This document shows positions 1 through 11,997 of a DNA stretch of 12,351 nt, in pieces. Under the pieces are notes generated by a model. That model was not told the origin of the DNA. It made no database searches and worked only from the letters and a program-made list of their open reading frames with translations. A program made the translations under genes and the position numbers. The stretch is from contig CP070761.1 in the NCBI GenBank assembly GCA_020348985.1, positions 1,191,193 to 1,203,543 on the forward strand, read 5' to 3'. Each line of letters starts with the position of its first letter. The stretch's first letter is position 1. Origin of the DNA: Candidatus Thorarchaeota archaeon (lineage in GTDB: Archaea; Asgardarchaeota; Thorarchaeia; Thorarchaeales; Thorarchaeaceae).

Positions 1-969
1 GGAACCGGCTTTGTCGGAAGCCACTTGGTGAGAATTCTCTGCAAAAAGGAGCACGATGTCACTGTTTTGGTCAGAGAGACTTCAAGCACTTCATTGATTG
101 AAGGGCTCTCTTTCAAAAGAACTGTTGGAGATGTCCGTGACATAGACAGTCTGCTCGCCGGCGTTCAGGAGACTGAATGGCTCTTTCACAATGCAGCAAT
201 CATGTCTGAATGGGGCGGCAAGCAGCGATTCTGGCCTGTGAATGTGGAAGGCACACGAAACATACTCGAAACCGTTAGAAGAAAAGACATCCCCAGGTTG
301 ATCCACACTTCATCAACAGCTGTCTATGGTCCGGACAACAAAACAGAGTACATGACTGAGGACACACCGAAGAGACCTTTCGGAGCCTATCAGAAATCAA
401 AGTGGGCTGCAGAGGAAGCGATACTGGAGTACGCGAATGATTATGGCATCAGAGCAGCAATAGTGAGACCTCCCACTATTATGGGCAGGGGGGATATGTT
501 CACCGGACCCCAGCTGATCAGAATACTCAAAGCAGGAAGGATGGTCTTCTTTGGGGATGGTTCAAATTTGCACAGCATTGTACACGGAGCGGACGCAGCA
601 AGGTGTCTTGTGTTGGCAGGAGAAGGGTTCGACAAAGCAGAGGGCAATGCTTTCAATGTAACTTCCTTCACCACAGAATGGAAAGAGACCATTGATGCCC
701 TAGCAAGAGAGCTCGACATTCCATTGAAGGCGCGACATATTCCCTATAGACTTGCACATGGACTAGGCGCATTCCTAGGAGGGCTGTACAGAGCCTTCCT
801 ACGCTACAACTCCCCCATGTTATCACCACTGAGGGTGAAGCTCTTTGGAACACAGCAAGCTGTCGATGATTCAAAGGCCAGAGAGCGGCTGGGATATGAG
901 CCAAAGTGGGATCTTGAGACAACAGCAAAAGATGTTGTGGAGTGGGGAGGAGAGGTAAAGCCTAGATAG
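1..969 (+). CDS. Extended short-chain dehydrogenase/reductase (NAD-dependent epimerase/dehydratase, 3-beta-HSD-like); 5' end lies outside the window
   Basis: Frame 1 is open from base 1 and reads GTGFVGSHLVRIL, the tail of the Rossmann TGxxGxxG motif, so the TTG at 25 is not the real start. Also has GDVRD, FHNAA, VNVEGTRN, HTSSTAVYG and catalytic YQKSK (YxxxK, 388-402). Stop TAG at 967-969. Confidence 0.92.
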   Translation, partial: GTGFVGSHLVRILCKKEHDVTVLVRETSSTSLIEGLSFKRTVGDVRDIDSLLAGVQETEWLFHNAAIMSEWGGKQRFWPVNVEGTRNILETVRRKDIPRLIHTSSTAVYGPDNKTEYMTEDTPKRPFGAYQKSKWAAEEAILEYANDYGIRAAIVRPPTIMGRGDMFTGPQLIRILKAGRMVFFGDGSNLHSIVHGADAARCLVLAGEGFDKAEGNAFNVTSFTTEWKETIDALARELDIPLKARHIPYRLAHGLGAFLGGLYRAFLRYNSPMLSPLRVKLFGTQQAVDDSKARERLGYEPKWDLETTAKDVVEWGGEVKPR

Positions 970-1028
970 AGATCGAGGACCCTTGGTAGGCGCAATCGTT
1001 ATTGAGGGCTGATACACAACGCAACTGG

Positions 1029-3416
1029 ATGGAAACCAGGAAACTCCACTCTGCCTGTGCACTCAATTGTCCGGACATTTGTGCATACATAGTTCACATT
1101 GAAGAAGGAAGAATAGTACGCTTGGAAGGTGATCCAGAGCATCCGTACACGTTGGGTCGCTGTTGTCCCAAAGGATACGGCCATGTTCTTCGAACCTATT
1201 CAGAAGGCCGGCTTCAGTTTCCAATGAAGAAACAGAAGAATGGAGAGTTTCTTAGAGTCACGTGGGAAGAGGCTCTTGATGACATTGCGGCGGCCTTCAA
1301 TTGTGCAAAGGAGGAGTTCGGCCCACACTCTGTTGGAATCTATTCAGGCTCGGGTAACGATGGGCTGGCACCAAAATATGCTGCTAGATATGCAAATGCA
1401 TTTGGTTGTAGAATGATACCGGGCATAGTTGAGATTTGCTTTCAAGGAGCCTACGAAGGAGCAAGGTTCAATGTTGGGCCATTCCCCCCGCATGAGTTGA
1501 GCGACTGGGCAAACTCAAAGTGCATTCTTGTCTGGGGCACAAACAAGTACGAGTCAAGCATTCACTGTAAGCGAGTGATCGATGATGCAATTGACGCGGG
1601 AGCCAAGCTTGTTGTCATAGATCCGAGAAGGACTCCTCATGCAAAGAGAGCAGACATCTATACGACGATTCGCCCAGGCACAGATGCCGCACTTGCACTA
1701 GGTATGGCCAAAGTCATAATTGAGAAAGAACTTCATAATGTGGGTTTTATTGAGAAGCACGTTTACGGTTTTGAGCAATATAGAGAACGAGCCAGAGAAT
1801 ATGATCTGAAAACAGTCAGTGAGATCACATGGGTGGATGAGAACGTAATCGAAGAGATGGCGGTAATGTTTGCCACCCATGGCCCAGGACTAATCATGAC
1901 AGCACCAGCGGGGATGAATCACTACACGAACGGTACTTGGGCGGCAAGAGCTGTTCATAGCCTCCTGGCCATATGTGGGTATCTGGGCCTCTCTGGTAGT
2001 GGGTTTCAATATCTCTCCTCTGACAACAGCCCGTTCAACGGTCCGGCTGTTCGTCTGGATTACTTGCTTGATGAATCTGTCCAGCCTGTTGTGCCCTCGG
2101 GTACCTATATCCCCGAATTCGTGTTGAGCCAGGAAGAGAGTCCACTTCAGGTCCTGGTCATTCAGGCGGCTAACCCGATGACACAATGGCCCAACACTGA
2201 GAAGACACGAAGTGCTCTGAGGAAGATACCATTCAAGGTCTGCATTGACCAGATGATGACCGATACTGCTAGGCACTGCGATATTGTCCTCCCCGCAACC
2301 ACGCTCTTTGAACATGACAACCTTGTTCATAGCGAGCTCCATAGAATCGTCCAGTACTCACCAAAGCTTGTTGAGCCACAAGGTGAGGCGAAGCATGAGC
2401 TAGAAATCTGGAAATGTATAGCAGAACAAACTGGACTCGAGTCATTTTTCCAGATCACTGAGAGGGACGCCATCCGATTATCTTTGGAAAGCGATGATTG
2501 TAGACACATTACACTAGAGAAGCTGAAGCAACAACCTGAAGGAATCAGGACGTCTGCTCCGGCAATTCCGTTTGCTGAGGGAGATTTCGGGACCCGCTCC
2601 GGCAAAGTGGAGCTTTATTCTGATGAGCTGGAGGAGTTGGGTTACGATCCGCTGCCGTTTCATGAAGAGCCGGCCGAAAGCCCAATGTCGACACCAGATG
2701 TCTTCTCGGAATATCCGCTAATCATGATTACGGGAAGGCTGCGTGAACGTCTGCATTCTCAGTTCACAGCACTAGAAGTCGGCGCAACGGTGACGAACTA
2801 TGTATATTGCACGTCCTGTCAGAAATGCGTGAAGGACTGTCCGGATGAAGCCATATCACTGAGACCCCCAAGCCCAGAAGAAATGGCTAAGCAACCAGCC
2901 TATGAAGAAGAAAGTCGAGCCGAAATGAGAAGCAGACTTGGTGCTTTGGTTAGGGGACTCGCAGTACGCAGTTCAGGAGAAGTGCTGAGGATTCCCAACG
3001 AGATGACAGGGCTTCTAATTCCAGAATGGGACATCGACAAGTGCATTGGATGTAGGGAGTGTAATCTTGACCTCTGTCCTTACAACGTGATAACTGAACC
3101 AATTCGTCTTGTTCCTGAGAAAGAGAGGCCAAACACAAAAGCGATTGTGGTTCTTCATCCACAGACTGCGGATTCCTTGGGACTTGTGGAAGATGATTCG
3201 ATCTATGTTGAATCGAGAAGGGGCAGAGTGGACAACGTTAGACTCAAGCTGTCAGAGGGTCTTGATCCCAGAATCATCTGGGCATCTGATGGTTGGTGGA
3301 ACAGAGAGGGCAACATGAATTTGCTTACAGATGACCGTTATACTTCGTTTGGACATACTCCAGGCTTCAATTCTGTTCTTGTAAGAGTCGGCAAATCTAA
3401 TACCAAACCAAGTTAG
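1029..3416 (+). CDS. Molybdopterin (bis-MGD, DMSO reductase superfamily) oxidoreductase with N-terminal [4Fe-4S] and an internal 2x[4Fe-4S] ferredoxin insertion
   Basis: ATG 1029 (METRKLHSAC) is preferred over TTG 1002. N-terminal CX3CX3CX27C-PKG Fe-S motif. Family motifs VTWEEALD, LVWGTN, VVIDPRRT, IRPGTDAALALG, ANPM..PN, TDTARHCDIVLPA and SGKVELYS. Domain IV motifs ITGR..LHSQF and LHPQTA..LGL...SRRG. Probable Cys Mo ligand in VEICFQG. No twin-arginine signal. Confidence 0.93.
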   Translation: METRKLHSACALNCPDICAYIVHIEEGRIVRLEGDPEHPYTLGRCCPKGYGHVLRTYSEGRLQFPMKKQKNGEFLRVTWEEALDDIAAAFNCAKEEFGPHSVGIYSGSGNDGLAPKYAARYANAFGCRMIPGIVEICFQGAYEGARFNVGPFPPHELSDWANSKCILVWGTNKYESSIHCKRVIDDAIDAGAKLVVIDPRRTPHAKRADIYTTIRPGTDAALALGMAKVIIEKELHNVGFIEKHVYGFEQYRERAREYDLKTVSEITWVDENVIEEMAVMFATHGPGLIMTAPAGMNHYTNGTWAARAVHSLLAICGYLGLSGSGFQYLSSDNSPFNGPAVRLDYLLDESVQPVVPSGTYIPEFVLSQEESPLQVLVIQAANPMTQWPNTEKTRSALRKIPFKVCIDQMMTDTARHCDIVLPATTLFEHDNLVHSELHRIVQYSPKLVEPQGEAKHELEIWKCIAEQTGLESFFQITERDAIRLSLESDDCRHITLEKLKQQPEGIRTSAPAIPFAEGDFGTRSGKVELYSDELEELGYDPLPFHEEPAESPMSTPDVFSEYPLIMITGRLRERLHSQFTALEVGATVTNYVYCTSCQKCVKDCPDEAISLRPPSPEEMAKQPAYEEESRAEMRSRLGALVRGLAVRSSGEVLRIPNEMTGLLIPEWDIDKCIGCRECNLDLCPYNVITEPIRLVPEKERPNTKAIVVLHPQTADSLGLVEDDSIYVESRRGRVDNVRLKLSEGLDPRIIWASDGWWNREGNMNLLTDDRYTSFGHTPGFNSVLVRVGKSNTKPS

Positions 3417-3417
3417 G

Positions 3418-3915
3418 TCACTGTGTCTCGTCATCCATAGTCGGAGGAGGCCAGAGATCGAGCATAATCCTCACGGCAATGATTTGGCCGAAGTGGTGGC
3501 TATTGTGTTGTAGAGCAACAAGAACCCAAGCTCCCGAGGGCCCCCTGGGCCATGTCGGTACTGGTTTTGTCATATCAGTTGAACGGACTATTTTCTCGAG
3601 CTCCTCAATTCCAGTTATGAATTGGGTCACAAGTCTCGGCCACTCATCATCATCCTCGAGCTCCATCTCCGTAGGCCATTCAACCTTGCTTACCTCTCGC
3701 CAGTCCATCTTCTCTCCCTTTAGCATCCTTATTGTGTAGTCCTGCCAAATCTCAGCGTGATGAAGCAGCTCCCAGCATGAGTGCATTTCACTCGAGGGAC
3801 GTTCTCTGGCTTTAGATGGCTCCAATCCGCTGATAGCCTTGGCTGGGTGAACATGAGTATGCTTGGCATAAAGCCCATCAATCAGAATCTCATCGAAGAT
3901 GTCTTGGGGGTTCAT
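3418..3915 (-). CDS. DinB/YfiT-like (DinB_2) four-helix-bundle metalloprotein
   Basis: 165 aa with HSCWELLHH and QHNSHHFGQI, the His triad arrangement typical of the DinB superfamily. Confidence 0.85.
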   Translation of the reverse strand: MNPQDIFDEILIDGLYAKHTHVHPAKAISGLEPSKARERPSSEMHSCWELLHHAEIWQDYTIRMLKGEKMDWREVSKVEWPTEMELEDDDEWPRLVTQFITGIEELEKIVRSTDMTKPVPTWPRGPSGAWVLVALQHNSHHFGQIIAVRIMLDLWPPPTMDDETQ

Positions 3916-4083: not shown

Positions 4084-5964
4084 TTGAACGAAGTCATGAC
4101 CATCCTAGAATCGTCGCTAACTGACGCCAATTTCCGCAAGCTGCTGGCAATCCCAAACAGGCATGTTCACGAGTTTGTGGCAAACGCAATCGAGCTTTGT
4201 GAACCGATGAAGGTGTTTGTTTGTGATGATAGTGAAATGGATACCGAGTATATCAGAAGAACAGCAATTGCCCGGGGCGAGGAGACTGAGCTGGCAGTTC
4301 GGACACATACTGTTCACTTTGACGGAATGTTTGATCAGGCCAGAGATAGAGAGCATACAATCTATCTTGTTCCAAAGGGCGAAACGCTCGGAAAGCACTT
4401 AATGCAAACAGACAGAGAGAGGGGACTCAAGCTCACCAAGGATCGATTGAGAGGAAGTATGAGAAACAAGAAGATGATAGTACGGTTCTTCTGTCTGGGG
4501 CCAATTGACTCGGTCTTCTCAATCCCGTGCGTTCAGATAACAGATTCATTTTACGTAGCACATAGTGCAGACTTACTTTACAGACATGGCTACAACTTCT
4601 TCAGAAGGCTTCCTGAAGATTCAGAGGTGTTCCGGATGCTTCACTCGTCCGGGAAACTGATGCATTCAGTCAGTATCGACTGGAAAAGGCGTGGTGTTGC
4701 GATTGACTACAGAGAGAACACAGTATACAGTTACAATACACAATATGCCGGAAACACAATTGGACTGAAGAAGCTGGCCCTTCGTCTTGCAATCCGCAAG
4801 GCCAGCAGGGAGGGCTGGCTGGCCGAACACATGTTTCTGATGGCCGTACACGGACCAAACGGAAGGAAGACCTACATGACCGGAGCGTTCCCCTCTGGCT
4901 GCGGAAAGACAAGCACATCGATGATTCCAGGAGCTACTATTGTGGGTGATGACCTGGCTTATCTGAGAAAGGTCTACGGGAAGATTAGAGCGGTCAATGT
5001 CGAAAAAGGAATCTTCGGTATAATTAGGTCTGTCAATGAGAAGGATGACCCTGTTATTTGGGATGTTCTTCAATCAGAGCATCCAGTAATCTTCTCTAAT
5101 GTGCTCATCAATGATGGTGTTCCTTATTGGATAGGTGACGGACGAGAGCCTCCAAAAAGAGGTATCAATTTCTCCGGAGAATGGTTCGAAGGAAAGAAGG
5201 ACGAGAGTGGTGAAGAGATTCCACCTGCACACAAGAATGCGAGGTATACAATAGCTCTCGATGGACTGTCGAACCTCGACGAGACCCTAGACGACGTTGA
5301 TGGTGTCAAGGTAGGCGCGGTGATATACGGAGGTCGCGATACAGACACATGGGTTCCTGTTCAGGAGTCATTTGATTGGGCTCACGGCGTCATAACAATG
5401 GGAGCAAGTCTCGAATCTGAGTCGACAGCTGCAACTCTTGGTCCCAGTGGAGTAAGATTGTTCCAGCCGTTCTCGAACATGGATTTCTTGTCAATCCCCT
5501 TAGGGCGATACATATCAAATCACTTGAGATTCGGGGAGGCAACCGAAGCCCCCCCGAAAGTCTTCGGCGTCAACTACTTCCTGAAGGATTCCAATGGGAA
5601 CTTCATAACTGACAAGCTAGACAAGCGCGTCTGGCTGCAGTGGATGGAGCTTCGTGTCCATGGCGAGGTCAGTGCCATGAAGGCGCCGACAGGACTACTA
5701 CCCTGGTTTGATGACTTGCAGAGACTATTCAGAAGATATCTCAACAAGGAATACACAATGGAGGACTATCTGACACAATTCGAGACACGTGTTCCTGAGC
5801 TAATTTCAAAGATTAACAGGATTGAAAACGAATATCGCGAAGGAGTCACTGATGTACCAGCTCTTCTTTTCAGCATTCTGGAAGAACAGCGTGAAATGTT
5901 GCTGGCAGCTCAGAGAGAACACGGCGACTGCATACCTCCAACGGTATACGACGAGATACACTAG
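4084..5964 (+). CDS. pckG: Phosphoenolpyruvate carboxykinase (GTP)
   Basis: 626 aa with DQAR, QITDSFYV, YAGNTIGLKKLALR, GWLAEHM, kinase-1a GAFPSGCGKT, kinase-2 VGDD, HKNARY, YGGRD and FGVNYF. These are signature motifs of the archaeal-type GTP-PEPCK. TTG start supported by an SD. Confidence 0.97.
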   Translation: MNEVMTILESSLTDANFRKLLAIPNRHVHEFVANAIELCEPMKVFVCDDSEMDTEYIRRTAIARGEETELAVRTHTVHFDGMFDQARDREHTIYLVPKGETLGKHLMQTDRERGLKLTKDRLRGSMRNKKMIVRFFCLGPIDSVFSIPCVQITDSFYVAHSADLLYRHGYNFFRRLPEDSEVFRMLHSSGKLMHSVSIDWKRRGVAIDYRENTVYSYNTQYAGNTIGLKKLALRLAIRKASREGWLAEHMFLMAVHGPNGRKTYMTGAFPSGCGKTSTSMIPGATIVGDDLAYLRKVYGKIRAVNVEKGIFGIIRSVNEKDDPVIWDVLQSEHPVIFSNVLINDGVPYWIGDGREPPKRGINFSGEWFEGKKDESGEEIPPAHKNARYTIALDGLSNLDETLDDVDGVKVGAVIYGGRDTDTWVPVQESFDWAHGVITMGASLESESTAATLGPSGVRLFQPFSNMDFLSIPLGRYISNHLRFGEATEAPPKVFGVNYFLKDSNGNFITDKLDKRVWLQWMELRVHGEVSAMKAPTGLLPWFDDLQRLFRRYLNKEYTMEDYLTQFETRVPELISKINRIENEYREGVTDVPALLFSILEEQREMLLAAQREHGDCIPPTVYDEIH

Positions 5965-6658: not shown

Positions 6659-7726
6659 ATGGATTCCCGAATCGAACATCACGCAAGGATTATCGTAGAA
6701 TGGAGCATTGAGATTAAGCCTGGAGACATGGTTACGATTGCCACATCTCCAGCAGGTCACGACTTAGCCGTCGCCGTGACAAAGGAAGTGGCCAAGGCAG
6801 GTGGCAGGCCTATTACTATGATGCTAAGTGAGGAGATAGACAAAGCAAAGTTTGATGGTGCTAGTGAGGAAGTACTAGAGCTCTTCCCAAAACACCAGAT
6901 GGCCATTGTCGAGAATAGTGATGCATTTGTGTTCATTAGATCGCCCGTAAATACGAGAGCTCTCGCCAGTGTGGACCCCAAGAAGGTCATGTTGGAAAGA
7001 AAGACGATCCGAGAAATAGTCAATCTGCGTCTGCAGAAACGCTGGGTACTCACTGTGCATCCGTGTCTCAGCCTGGCACAACAGGCCAACATGAGCCTGG
7101 AAGAGTATCAGGATTTTGTCTATCGTGCAACTCTCTTGGACTGGAAGAAAGAGAGCAAAAACATGTACCTCATCAAGGAGCATCTTGAGAAACACAAAGA
7201 CATCAGATTTGTTGGACCCGAAACGGACCTTTGGGCGTCAACTGAAGGAAGAATCTGGCTAGCATCGGACGCAAAGCACAATCTGCCTTCGGGAGAAGTG
7301 TTCACTGCCCCCGTCGAGACAGCCGTCGAAGGAAAGATCTACTTCGACATCCCATTCCTGCAGCAAGGCAGGGTTCTGGAGGGTGTCCGCCTCACTTTCG
7401 AGAAGGGCGAAGTGGTTGACTACTCTGCAGAAAAAGAAGAAGGAACGTTGAAGGAGATACTCGAGACAGACGAGGGAGCTCGTCGCCTCGGTGAGATGGC
7501 CATTGGGACGAATAGAGGCATCACCCAATACACACTGAACATGCTATTCGACGAGAAGATTGGGGATACGATTCACTGTGCGCTTGGAAATGCATACAAA
7601 GACAACAACGGGACAAATGAAAGCGCTGTTCATGTGGATATGATCAAGACGATGATCGAGGGCGAGATAACCGCCGGTGATGAAGTCATCTACTCGAAGG
7701 GCAAGTTCTTTTACGAGAATGAATGA
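6659..7726 (+). CDS. Aminopeptidase, peptidase family M29 (AmpS/AmpT/PepS-like thermophilic metalloprotease)
   Basis: 355 aa with IKPGDMV, RWVLTVHP...AQQANMS, NLPSGEVFTAP, LGEMAIG, LFDEKIGDTIHCALGNAY and SAVHVDM. These carry the Glu/His/Asp dimetal ligands and the catalytic Tyr of M29. Confidence 0.95.
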   Translation: MDSRIEHHARIIVEWSIEIKPGDMVTIATSPAGHDLAVAVTKEVAKAGGRPITMMLSEEIDKAKFDGASEEVLELFPKHQMAIVENSDAFVFIRSPVNTRALASVDPKKVMLERKTIREIVNLRLQKRWVLTVHPCLSLAQQANMSLEEYQDFVYRATLLDWKKESKNMYLIKEHLEKHKDIRFVGPETDLWASTEGRIWLASDAKHNLPSGEVFTAPVETAVEGKIYFDIPFLQQGRVLEGVRLTFEKGEVVDYSAEKEEGTLKEILETDEGARRLGEMAIGTNRGITQYTLNMLFDEKIGDTIHCALGNAYKDNNGTNESAVHVDMIKTMIEGEITAGDEVIYSKGKFFYENE

Positions 7727-7857: not shown

Positions 7858-7927
7858 AGCATTTTGAACATACCATCGACGCCACCATATCGCCTTGCGT
7901 CACCACCAAACTGGAAGGTATTACAGA

Positions 7928-10102
7928 TTGACATCGAGCGATGCAAGGTCAACTGGTCTCCTCTTTGTATTCGTCATGTTGTACCTTCTGGTCGTTCCTC
8001 TTCAGGCTCAGTACCCTGCAGACCTCGAATCGAAAGAACTCCGAATCACGAATCAAATGACAGAAAGTGCGGTCTCCTCACTCACGAGTCATGGGCCCAT
8101 TTTGATTTCTAGCAACAGAGACTTCCAGAGTCAGGGGTGGCCAGGAAATGGGACAGTGGAGAATCCGTATGTAATTGAAGGGCTTAGCATACAATCAGAA
8201 GAGAATTGCATCTTCGTAACAAGGACGTCGGTTCATTTTGTGGTACGAGACTGTAGGCTGAGTTCTGGCGATGACGATAAGGGAATTGGGATCTTTCTCT
8301 TAAAAGTCTCAAATGCTGTCCTAGAGAACATCACTATCACCGATCTGTCAACAGGGATTCTTGTTGATAGAGTAGCGTATACTTCAATCTCCAGAGTCGT
8401 TTTGTCGAACATAAAGACAGGAATTGTGTTGGATCGGTCTAGCGACATATTGGTAAATCAAACGTCAGTATCCGACAGTGTTTATGGTGTACACGTCAGC
8501 AAGAGTCAGGATTGTGTTATCAGAGATTCAGAAGTTTCTAATTCAGATATTGGTGTGCTCACAGAGGGTAGTTTGGATGTCACTCTTTCAGGCAATCTTG
8601 TCTATGATTGCACCCACGGTTTCTTCATTCATTCCTCACACAGGGGTATTGTACGCGGGAACACCCTTCATGATCTGGCCTATGGGGTGTCAACCTCATA
8701 CTCTGATGATTGCCGCTTGATTGGAAATGAAATTCGGAATTCTGACTACGGTGCCTTTCTCACAAATGGAGATAGACTCAACGCAACAGGAAACGATGTC
8801 CGATCCAACAAGATAGCAGGCATCTATGTTCGGATATCTGAAGATAGCGCTTTCATCGACAACATGATAATGGACAATGCAGGAACTGGTCTGTATTTGA
8901 AAGCAGGCTCGAACTGCAACATATCCACCAATGAGATAGGGTACAATTCGGTGAGCAATGCCGGTGACTACAAAGACGCAACAGTCATCGTCACACTTGA
9001 GAATTCATGGGACGGCAATGCTTGGGGAGACTACCATGGAATTCCTACATACGCAATTCCAGGAGACCGCAAAAGCGTAGACAATTGCCCACATTCGATT
9101 CTGAGGACTCACAGTCCAGATGATGTGGTCTTGGAATTCGGAGAGACAGCTTCTTTCATCTGGAATATTTCAGCGTTCAGGCCAGATCGGTTCGAAGTGT
9201 CGAGGAATGGCGAAGTGTCTCAGAGCGGCAAATGGAATGGATCGAACCTAAGAATAGAACTGGCATCCCTTGACGTGGGCGTTTATGATTACGCTCTGAC
9301 AGTCAACACCACAAGTAGACGAGTTTGGACAGATACTGTATCGGTGAGTGTTTTTGACTCAATAGGGCCAGTTTGGATAGATGGGCCTGAAGATACATCT
9401 ATCGAGTCAGGAGGAAGGTTCTCAATTCAGTTGACTGCATACGACCCATCAGGAATAGATCGCTACTGGGTGAATAACACAGACGATTTTACCATCGACT
9501 TGAATGGAAATGTGAGTGACACACATGTCTTGTCGGTGGGATTGTATTGGCTTGAGATAGGAGTCGCAGATGTATATGGAAATCCTCTGACCACTGTGAT
9601 TACTGTTCATGTGGTTGATACAACAACCCCAATAATCGATGGTCCTAACGACATTTCGATTCATGAGGGCACAGCTGGAGTTGCGATTGTTTGGTCGACG
9701 TTCTATGACCTGAATCCTGGTTCCTATCAGATACTTAGGAATGGAACGATGCTCAGAGAGGGCTTGTGGAATAGCACTTCTGAGTCCTTAGTCATTAGCC
9801 TAGATGATCTTCCGCCCGGAACTTACGTCTACTCATTGATCCTCAGTGATACCAGTGGCAACAGTGTAGAGGATGAAGTGCTTGTCATCGTGACCCCACA
9901 AGAGACTCCCACGACCGAGACTACAACTCCAACCACAACCTCAGGGCAACCTCCAACAACAACTGACACGAGCCTAACTTCCCCGCAGGATAGCAGCATG
10001 GCCCCCCTTGCTACAATAACCGGGTTCTCAGTGGCCGCAGCCATTGTGATTCTCGTTCTTAGTAGAAGGGGAGTCATGCCGCTCTCAAAGAAAGGCAAAT
10101 GA
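7928..10102 (+). CDS. Cell-surface glycoprotein: signal/TM segment, NosD/CASH-type right-handed parallel beta-helix, three Ig/cadherin-like domains, Thr/Pro-rich linker, C-terminal TM anchor
   Basis: TTG 7928 follows GGAAGGT and is preferred over 7895. N-terminal hydrophobic stretch LLFVFVMLYLLVV, then HGPILI...WPGNGTVENPYVIEGLSI and ~22-aa GI.L..S....I.GN repeats. Ig-like repeats span ~9113-9892, then TPTTETTTPTTT, a TM helix (LATITGFSVAAAIVILVL) and a basic tail. Many NxS/T sequons. Confidence 0.9.
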   Translation: MTSSDARSTGLLFVFVMLYLLVVPLQAQYPADLESKELRITNQMTESAVSSLTSHGPILISSNRDFQSQGWPGNGTVENPYVIEGLSIQSEENCIFVTRTSVHFVVRDCRLSSGDDDKGIGIFLLKVSNAVLENITITDLSTGILVDRVAYTSISRVVLSNIKTGIVLDRSSDILVNQTSVSDSVYGVHVSKSQDCVIRDSEVSNSDIGVLTEGSLDVTLSGNLVYDCTHGFFIHSSHRGIVRGNTLHDLAYGVSTSYSDDCRLIGNEIRNSDYGAFLTNGDRLNATGNDVRSNKIAGIYVRISEDSAFIDNMIMDNAGTGLYLKAGSNCNISTNEIGYNSVSNAGDYKDATVIVTLENSWDGNAWGDYHGIPTYAIPGDRKSVDNCPHSILRTHSPDDVVLEFGETASFIWNISAFRPDRFEVSRNGEVSQSGKWNGSNLRIELASLDVGVYDYALTVNTTSRRVWTDTVSVSVFDSIGPVWIDGPEDTSIESGGRFSIQLTAYDPSGIDRYWVNNTDDFTIDLNGNVSDTHVLSVGLYWLEIGVADVYGNPLTTVITVHVVDTTTPIIDGPNDISIHEGTAGVAIVWSTFYDLNPGSYQILRNGTMLREGLWNSTSESLVISLDDLPPGTYVYSLILSDTSGNSVEDEVLVIVTPQETPTTETTTPTTTSGQPPTTTDTSLTSPQDSSMAPLATITGFSVAAAIVILVLSRRGVMPLSKKGK

Positions 10103-11019: not shown

Positions 11020-11997
11020 ATGCAGGACATAGTATTCCAGCTGCTGCCTATCGTCGCCTTCGCAGTTGGCGTCGGTATCATTTCTGCGATGGTAGGAATC
11101 GGTGGTGGCATCCTGAATACGCCATTATTGATTATTGTCTTCCTTCTGCCTGCACAGCAAGCATCGGCGACCGCGTTGGTTGCTGCACTGTTCATAGCAG
11201 TTGCAGGTACATGGGCGTACGGAAGGCAGAAACCAAGTCCTATCATAACCAAGGTCGGACTTCTCCTAGCAGTCACAACGGCCCCTGGATCCATAATTGG
11301 GGTGGGCCTGCGTGAACTCATCACGGATGACTATCTTCTAAGGCTCGTCTTTGGTGTGTCTCTGTTTCCTGTCGCATTGAAAATGCTCTTCGCGAAGCAG
11401 AAAGGCAGAGGTGATCTTGCGTCGGAGCTTGCAGCCTTTGACGTTTCGGATGTCTCTCGCGAAAGGATGGCATCGGCCCTTCTTGGGGCGTTCATTGGAG
11501 GTGTTGCTGCAGGTCTCTTGGGGATAGGAGGCGGGGCCATTGTTGTACCCGTACTCAACATTCTCGTAGGCCTTCCTATGCATGCCGCAGCTGCAACCTC
11601 AATATTTACTATGATATTCACGGCAGGTGCGGGCACCGCTCGAAACTACATTGGAGGACACGTCGACCTCGTCTTTGGTCTCACGTTGGGCATCGGGATG
11701 CTCATCGGAGCCCAGTTCGGAGCCAGATTCGCGAGCAGAGTGAATGCGGCTCAGCTGAAGAGAATCTTTGGTTTGATTCTGGTGTTTCCGCTTGTGAAGA
11801 TGATGAAACTGGGACAGTTTTGGTTAGACCCTCTTGGAGTTGACTTTCTGCTAGCCACAATAGGAGATGTCATAATCTGGGCAATCATTGTGATACCCAT
11901 TGGCATCGTTAGGATGTATCAGCTCCACAGATCACAGAATGAACAGAACCCATCAACAGAAGAAGCGGAACGTGACATCGGGTCACAGATGACTTGA
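11020..11997 (+). CDS. Sulfite exporter TauE/SafE family (TSUP) permease
   Basis: Twofold internal repeat with signature motifs GIISAMVGIGGGILNTP and GVAAGLLGIGGGAIVVPVL, plus A.ATS-type motifs and G..IGAQFGARF. About 9 TM helices. Confidence 0.93.
   Translation: MQDIVFQLLPIVAFAVGVGIISAMVGIGGGILNTPLLIIVFLLPAQQASATALVAALFIAVAGTWAYGRQKPSPIITKVGLLLAVTTAPGSIIGVGLRELITDDYLLRLVFGVSLFPVALKMLFAKQKGRGDLASELAAFDVSDVSRERMASALLGAFIGGVAAGLLGIGGGAIVVPVLNILVGLPMHAAAATSIFTMIFTAGAGTARNYIGGHVDLVFGLTLGIGMLIGAQFGARFASRVNAAQLKRIFGLILVFPLVKMMKLGQFWLDPLGVDFLLATIGDVIIWAIIVIPIGIVRMYQLHRSQNEQNPSTEEAERDIGSQMT

Follow-up and report, generated by a model that had tools for sequence, protein, structure and literature searches.

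The 12,351-nt stretch of Candidatus Thorarchaeota archaeon contig CP070761.1 analysed here (the window) carries a gene for an enzyme of the MopB, or DMSO-reductase, superfamily in which a two-[4Fe-4S] ferredoxin domain interrupts domain IV of the catalytic subunit. The arrangement is conserved, is confined to one Thorarchaeia lineage, and employs a ferredoxin domain of a long-spacer family whose other members accompany heterodisulfide-reductase-like (HdrA-MvhD) genes. Comparison of the homologous proteins supports the view that they make up a genuine subfamily of cytoplasmic, stand-alone MopB enzymes, conserved and as yet without a name. As to what the insert does, we give about an even chance to the reading that this cytoplasmic enzyme has replaced its iron–sulphur (Fe-S) subunit with an insert from the Hdr/MvhD-associated family and relays electrons to an MvhD-type partner.

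The gene is the window's single long plus-strand open reading frame (ORF) in the ORF list and its translation; the true start is probably the ATG at 1029, which would give a protein of 795 aa, because homologues begin about five residues before HSACALNCPD. The insertion site lies between the HS motif and the first strand of domain IV. HSQF occupies residues 585–588 (nt 2754–2765), with His585-Ser586 aligning with the HS motif of insert-less relatives, and VVLHPQTA begins at residue 716 (nt 3147). The distance from HS to HP is 133 aa in 96 of 113 family members versus 20 aa in 27 of 28 insert-less relatives, a net gain by insertion of about 113 aa, and the loop at this site is also about 20 aa in acetylene hydratase. 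Matches to Molybdop_Fe4S4 (37.4 bits), Molybdopterin (166.3 bits, residues 70–475) and Molydop_binding (59.2 bits) follow one another in that order, all above the Pfam cut-offs. Between the last two, Fer4_9 is matched over its full profile across a long gap (residues 602–697; 31.1 bits against a cut-off of 27, E 2.4e-7), and the Molydop_binding match begins only at profile position 22. Since Fer4_9 precedes a Molydop_binding match that starts so far into its profile, domain IV is split by a dicluster ferredoxin. The whole-profile match and eight invariant cysteines place the insert in the 2x[4Fe-4S] ferredoxin fold, where it would bind two clusters, with the qualification that its second motif is spaced x4, not x3. 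The two motifs are separated by a spacer of 66 aa (residues 615–680). An earlier reading of the letters and their ORFs (the sequence-only reading) had placed the insert, both motifs and a 66-aa spacer exactly where the translation of 1002–3416 puts them, and the splitting of domain IV by a ferredoxin that it expected is borne out by Pfam.

A search of 5.8 billion proteins recovered more than 110 clusters of this protein at 61–80% identity and about 790 aa, nearly all of the named ones from Thorarchaeota. All eight insert cysteines are invariant among 114 near-full-length, independently assembled homologues, the stretch from Cys613 to Cys681 is 67 aa long in 99 of the 114, and none of the family variants listed departs from x4 spacing in its second motif. 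Four residues of the spacer (L646, L653, A654 and P665) are likewise invariant or nearly so within the family. The conservation of insert and cysteines that the sequence-only reading wished to see checked is thus borne out. GC content is even along the insert, which together with the retention of eight cysteines and of spacer length in 114 homologues excludes chance or an assembly chimera. That the architecture is an artefact, whether a chimeric join or two genes read as one, is to our minds vanishingly improbable: independent assemblies, closed or near-closed contigs included, give the same uninterrupted frame in more than 110 protein clusters, and its composition is even.

A profile of residues 560–804 searched against 1.84 billion representatives at 50% identity found one full-length cluster and, beside it, fragments of the same family. 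Beyond the family, E-values drop from 1e-29 to 1e-15, and the later MopB matches fall in two stretches, that is, they are insert-less. We also surveyed 400 Asgard genomes, 85 of them from the window's own family and 314 from other families. Full-length orthologues (62–69% identity, query coverage about 10–800) occurred solely in the window's own Thorarchaeia family, where 38 of the 85 genomes hold complete copies and about 12 more hold copies cut by contig ends. No insert-bearing orthologue was among the matches listed for the 314 genomes of other families; all of these were at most 39% identical, and those reaching the C-terminal part stop at about residues 579–591, just before the insert. 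The nearest insert-less proteins are 30–35% identical and have 20 aa at the insertion site. No NCBIfam model attains its cut-off for the protein and we found no description of a MopB enzyme with a ferredoxin in domain IV in the literature searched, in keeping with the earlier suggestion of an undescribed subfamily.

The profile of residues 560–804 pointed to the source of the insert as well, since it also matches ferredoxin domains of equal length in a single stretch, spacer included. These belong to small proteins of about 160 aa, to a 743-aa Helarchaeota protein annotated as '4Fe-4S binding protein' and to a 294-aa Bathyarchaeia fusion of MvhD (FlpD) with a ferredoxin. Because the family alignment runs through the spacer, the spacer is part of a pre-existing domain, not a linker. 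The length and partly helical character attributed to it beforehand (helix 641–653) therefore stand, but it is a conserved functional part of the domain rather than a mere separator of two motifs. Across the ferredoxin family the spacer follows the consensus L..L(I/V)..LAV...(I/V)P at 23–29% identity to the insert, and the only non-cysteine positions conserved in the wider family are those of L653 and P665. The second motif is x3 in family members outside MopB versus x4 in the enzyme. The enzyme thus shares with the long-spacer family the single-stretch alignment and the leucine and proline of the spacer, and lacks the adjacency or fusion to mvhD.

In the window's genome the long-spacer domain occurs exactly twice, in the enzyme and at the C-terminus of a 759-aa winged helix-turn-helix protein, the two domains being 28% identical (BLASTP, E 1e-7). 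The gene for this paralogue is the last in a same-strand row that encodes an HdrC-like protein, an HdrB-like protein, an FAD protein and an HdrA-MvhD fusion (G000:C1:3729-5924); in Helarchaeota the same gene set likewise stands in one row (L016, L017). The Bathyarchaeia MvhD–ferredoxin fusion forms a cluster of 21 members and follows hdrA-like genes, and a small fragmentary homologue (P0250, on a short contig) has an HdrC-like gene after it. All 26 genomes sampled from the window's family proved to contain the ferredoxin protein of the Hdr row, genera without the enzyme included. The 759-aa protein itself (G000:C1:1471-3750, minus strand, locus L015, the row reaching up to 8582) has TrmB/MarR-like winged-helix matches and belongs to an unnamed family. 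Over the whole genome, MvhD (FlpD) domains number six, and two free MvhD proteins are encoded at about 2.638-2.642 Mb. Another Hdr locus (G000:C1:2632000-2648000, L019) is a row of hdrC, hdrB, hdrA (a GltD-like fusion), mvhD, a split hdrA, mvhD, mvhG and mvhA. Elsewhere, a free-standing 133-aa ORF (G000:C1:916109-916306, minus strand, near 914190-915498) matches Molydop_binding (MopB domain IV or FwdD-like) and adjoins an 827-aa gene of HdrA-MvhD type and another Fer4 protein; it may be a further link between MopB parts and Hdr modules.

We next turn to predicted structure. The AlphaFold2 model of the whole protein has a mean pLDDT of 90.9 and a pTM of 0.90, with most of the insert, in which helix 641–653 is seen, at 80–89. 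Its top folds in the PDB are FdhH, acetylene hydratase and Nap (Foldseek E 1e-46 to 1e-47). Taken in isolation, the insert has its best structural neighbour in a Thorarchaeota cluster of the ESM Atlas (template modelling (TM) score 0.73). Foldseek against the PDB gave it just generic dicluster ferredoxins of the PsaC and FwdF types, weakly (E above 0.1), an ESM Atlas feature search with the insert gave no usable match, and sequence searches of the PDB, whether with the profile of the ferredoxin family or with just the spacer, found no chain that covers the spacer.

Because the insert's ferredoxin family accompanies MvhD, MvhD was chosen as the docking partner, and we predicted the complex of the whole enzyme with the MvhD domain (aa 585–731) of the HdrA-MvhD fusion from the Hdr row. 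In the model the MvhD domain docks onto the spacer with an ipSAE of 0.63, the best of three controls scoring 0.00. This mark is reached by 58 of 80 solved complexes and by 2 of 110 mismatched pairs, a benchmark that is only a rough guide here since a custom alignment was used. Contact agreement between runs was at least 86% and partner pLDDT at least 80. The enzyme's confident contacts are all predicted to fall within spacer residues 624–671 and include L646, L653, A654 and P665, which had already been seen to be conserved. Those modelled on the MvhD side follow Cys625 and Cys650/655. The spacer is unlike any solved chain in sequence, so that at this level the score is unlikely to derive from a like complex known to the predictor. 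The modelling thus predicts the spacer to be a docking surface for MvhD.

Membership of the MopB superfamily follows from the three Pfam domains in order, a four-domain fold, a conserved Cys ligand and the presence of cofactor genes, those for MoaC, MoeA and a MobA-like protein of Mo/W cofactor synthesis all being in the same genome. The cysteines of FS0 and Lys57 are invariant or nearly so across the 114 homologues; Lys57 lies between FS0 and the pterin and aligns with Lys48 of acetylene hydratase. Cys146, the predicted Mo/W ligand, is unchanged in 114 of 114. The protein is the genome's only four-domain MopB, though not its only superfamily member: a 435-aa FwdB-like ORF (Molybdopterin domain) and an adjoining 149-aa FwdD-like ORF (Molydop_binding) at G000:C1:2791113-2792774, minus strand, together look like a formylmethanofuran-dehydrogenase-type pair.

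Automated pipelines label the protein 'anaerobic selenocysteine-containing dehydrogenase'. Acetylene hydratase is the closest solved relative by sequence (E 1e-64), yet its catalytic Asp13 aligns with Pro24 in all 110 homologues that have the N-terminus (the remaining 4 of 114 being gapped there); an Asp that might or might not be its equivalent sits one position after Pro24. Formate dehydrogenase (FdhF/FdhA, TIGR01591) was rejected at 273 bits against an NCBIfam cut-off of 666, and on residues as well, since Cys146 is followed by Phe147 and not by His, and Arg333 of FdhH aligns with the invariant Ser339. Polysulfide or thiosulfate reductase (PsrA/PhsA) likewise failed, at 190.8 bits against a cut-off of 694 and with no beta or anchor gene in any of the eight gene contexts described below. 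No twin-arginine translocation (Tat) signal was found among the 114 homologues, whose N-termini are short and show an RR-like motif in one case only, as the sequence-only reading had observed for the window's own protein. A candidate for selenocysteine, a TGA in the orthologue of genome G341, proved to be a stop upstream of the true start and outside the gene. One survey counted '7 AH-family homologs' in Asgard metagenome-assembled genomes and left a ferredoxin insert unmentioned (PMC10100899); Asgard surveys of this kind may have included the present enzyme in their tally of acetylene-hydratase-like proteins. A Thorarchaeota metabolic reconstruction reported no formate dehydrogenase (PMC8072921). 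Lacking the residues that define acetylene hydratase and those that define formate dehydrogenase, this protein should be given neither role in metabolic reconstructions.

Gene context was compared between the window and seven homologous loci. The enzyme gene is monocistronic in all eight contexts, being flanked by divergent or convergent genes, and no Fe-S (beta) subunit, membrane anchor, hdr or mvhD gene adjoins it in any of them; the absence of beta and anchor genes noted earlier for the window alone thus extends to the other seven loci. The insert-less relatives are arranged otherwise. In the nearest of them (P0130) genes for a Fer4_11 subunit and an NrfD anchor lie downstream of the catalytic gene, in an Asgard relative (genome G104) a Fer4_11 subunit gene does so, and a third (genome G192) stands alone, so that two of the three nearest relatives have a Fer4_11 neighbour. 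Architecturally, the insert substitutes for a separate beta subunit. The stand-alone relative (G192:C55, L025:3696-8507), from another Asgard family, is an insert-less MopB of 695 aa and 34% identity; its gene is divergent from that of a pyruvate-formate-lyase-like glycyl radical enzyme, a radical-SAM activase adjoins, and the setting suggests formate metabolism.

These data are consistent with the following mechanism. The enzyme would be a cytoplasmic, Cys-ligated oxidoreductase of one Thorarchaeia family with Mo/W held by bis-pyranopterin guanine dinucleotide (bisPGD), in which a two-[4Fe-4S] ferredoxin domain, placed in the first surface loop of domain IV, would take over from a separate Fe-S subunit. 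This domain would have been recruited from the long-spacer dicluster ferredoxins, a component of archaeal HdrA-MvhD gene clusters for flavin-based bifurcation. Electrons would pass in one direction or the other between the Mo/W site, the proximal pterin, FS0 and the two inserted clusters, and the conserved helical spacer would dock an MvhD-type [2Fe-2S] domain. The enzyme would thereby serve as donor or acceptor module of an Hdr-type complex, analogous to the methanogen FdhAB-MvhD-HdrABC. Several points weigh against this mechanism. The gene adjoins no hdr or mvhD gene in any of the eight contexts, and the Hdr-row ferredoxin is universal in the family but the enzyme was found in no more than about 50 of the 85 genomes. 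Docking is predicted, not measured, for one of the genome's six MvhD domains, excised from a fusion protein, in a kind of test that close cousins of a true partner pass as well. The x4 spacing of the second motif is unusual.

The main rival, which we consider possible but doubtful, holds the enzyme to be self-contained: the insert would replace a beta subunit of DmsB/PsrB type and exchange electrons with a diffusible carrier such as a soluble ferredoxin, there would be no Hdr or MvhD link, and the resemblance to Hdr-row ferredoxins would tell of the insert's source only. It accounts readily for a monocistronic gene without a partner gene in eight contexts, for the separate Fer4_11 subunit of the nearest relatives and for the many genomes that keep the Hdr row and lack the enzyme. 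A conserved 66-aa spacer would however be superfluous for a plain relay, and the spacer is of fixed length, with conserved residues that are those of the MvhD-associated homologues and of the predicted docking contacts. As the insert belongs to a family tied to Hdr and MvhD and its spacer is predicted to dock MvhD, the enzyme is probably not self-contained; the single-chain enzyme with its own electron-transfer module that the sequence-only reading proposed survives as stand-alone and cytoplasmic, less well as self-sufficient. That the inserted clusters lie off the catalytic path, where they would sense redox state or oxygen or would brace domain IV, in an enzyme that is self-contained or non-redox in the manner of acetylene hydratase, we judge improbable. 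The closest solved relative is indeed the non-redox acetylene hydratase, but the catalytic Asp13 of that enzyme is Pro24 in the family, eight cysteines and a ferredoxin fold are strictly retained, and the homologous domains belong to electron-transfer complexes. The relay to an MvhD-type partner can also be put in a stronger form. MvhD is the established entry point through which the exchangeable donor modules Mvh, Fdh and Elp reach HdrA (PMC13580544). That the MopB enzyme plugs directly into an HdrA-MvhD bifurcating complex by way of its insert, with the long spacer as an unrecognised MvhD-binding motif, is a tentative proposal to which we attach appreciably less than an even chance. If this is true, the enzyme would join Mvh hydrogenase, FdhAB and Elp as a fourth kind of exchangeable Hdr redox module, and non-methanogenic Asgard archaea would have their first.

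The coordinates of the gene, its parts and its neighbours are collected below. The enzyme gene ends one base from its convergent neighbour and stands in a conserved synteny block comprising an epimerase, a 1100-aa acetyltransferase, DinB_2, phosphoenolpyruvate carboxykinase (PEPCK), a CitMHS/ArsB-type permease, an M29 peptidase and TauE. The block is retained round the enzyme gene in other Thorarchaeia, often with the CitMHS/ArsB-type permease and the 1100-aa acetyltransferase. We rejected these neighbours as a functional clue, the block being vertically inherited; TauE and the CitMHS/Na-sulfate-symporter-like neighbours give at most a weak hint of an oxyanion substrate. The window also encodes (7895-10102, plus strand) a 735-aa protein that has NosD/beta-helix repeats, a stalk rich in Thr and Pro and a hydrophobic anchor at the C-terminus; it is probably a surface protein.

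Table. Features of the enzyme gene and its neighbours, in window coordinates.
Feature	Position	Strand	Basis or detail
Mo/W-bisPGD (MopB) catalytic subunit gene, four-domain	1002..3416	+	ORF list, translation, Pfam; 804-aa ORF (P0001)
FS0 [4Fe-4S] domain, aa 14-66	1041..1199	+	Pfam Molybdop_Fe4S4; Cys19, Cys23, Cys27, Cys55, Lys57
Cys146, predicted Mo/W ligand, motif EICF(E/Q)G	1437..1439	+	aligns with acetylene hydratase Cys141
His585-Ser586 motif, start of domain IV, directly 5' of insertion	2754..2759	+	114/114
Long-spacer 2x[4Fe-4S] ferredoxin module, aa 589-715	2766..3146	+	Pfam Fer4_9; HS-to-HP distance; homology to Hdr-associated ferredoxins
First cluster motif CxxCxxCxxxCP, CTSCQKCVKDCP, aa 603-614	2808..2843	+	Cys603, 606, 609, 613; invariant 114/114
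Spacer segment aa 624-671 (helix 641-653 and LAV...IP stretch), predicted MvhD [2Fe-2S] docking surface	2871..3014	+	complex-prediction interface
Second cluster motif CxxCxxCx4CP, CIGCRECNLDLCP, aa 681-693	3042..3080	+	Cys681, 684, 687, 692; invariant 114/114
Remainder of domain IV, aa 705-792, dinucleotide-binding beta-barrel	3114..3377	+	Pfam Molydop_binding, profile positions 22-109
Epimerase	1-969		synteny block
DinB_2	3418-3915		convergent, 1 bp from enzyme stop
GTP-PEPCK	4084-5964		synteny block
M29 aminopeptidase	6659-7726		synteny block
TauE	11020-11997		synteny block

MopB enzymes account for much of the anaerobic cycling of carbon, nitrogen, sulfur, arsenic and selenium. To our knowledge, descriptions of extra Fe-S clusters in these enzymes have until now placed them on separate subunits or in N-terminal fusions. 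Insertion into domain IV is another evolutionary route for wiring such enzymes. Should the predicted MvhD docking prove true, a molybdo- or tungstoenzyme would be coupled to Hdr-type bifurcation in Asgard archaea, a group with many Hdr/MvhD modules but no known substrates for them, and an unnamed ferredoxin family would gain both a function and a concrete partner pair.

Among known systems, acetylene hydratase of Pelobacter acetylenicus (PDB 2e7z) is likewise cytoplasmic and stand-alone, with FS0, the Lys, a Cys ligand and the same fold (TM by target 0.79); the Thorarchaeota enzyme differs from it in having Pro24 for Asp, Cx3Cx3C spacing at FS0 and the 113-aa insert, at about 24% identity. With the alpha-beta(-gamma) complexes that have a four-cluster Fer4_11 subunit and an NrfD anchor, such as PsrABC (PDB 2vpw) or that encoded by the P0130 operon, it shares the catalytic fold and extra [4Fe-4S] motifs beyond FS0, but it lacks beta gene, anchor and Tat signal, and its predicted extra clusters number two, not four, and lie inside domain IV. 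Extra Fe-S domains in the same chain as a MopB module are also known from the NAD-linked formate dehydrogenases (FdsA), ForC/YjgC and NuoG (PDB 7vw6, 6tg9, 8rqz), where they are N-terminal to FS0 and of other ferredoxin families, in contrast to the domain IV insert described here. The long-spacer ferredoxins of Hdr clusters align over the whole domain, including the spacer of about 66 aa, and the isolated insert has its Atlas neighbour at TM 0.73; they are C-terminal or free-standing with an x3 second motif, whereas only in the Thorarchaeota enzyme family is the domain inserted into another fold. A functional parallel that we propose is the FdhAB-MvhD-HdrABC(-Fmd) complex of Methanospirillum hungatei (PDB 7bkb; compare Mvh/Elp-Hdr, PMC13580544), in which a MopB enzyme feeds an Hdr core through Fe-S clusters and an MvhD adaptor. 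The likeness lies in the predicted MvhD contact and in the occurrence of the insert's relatives in hdrA-mvhD rows. Unlike FdhA of that complex, the Thorarchaeota enzyme is without the formate dehydrogenase His and Arg, its gene does not belong to an hdr operon and its binding is only modelled. In the methanogen the link is a separate FdhB; in the Thorarchaeota enzyme it would be a domain inside the catalytic subunit.

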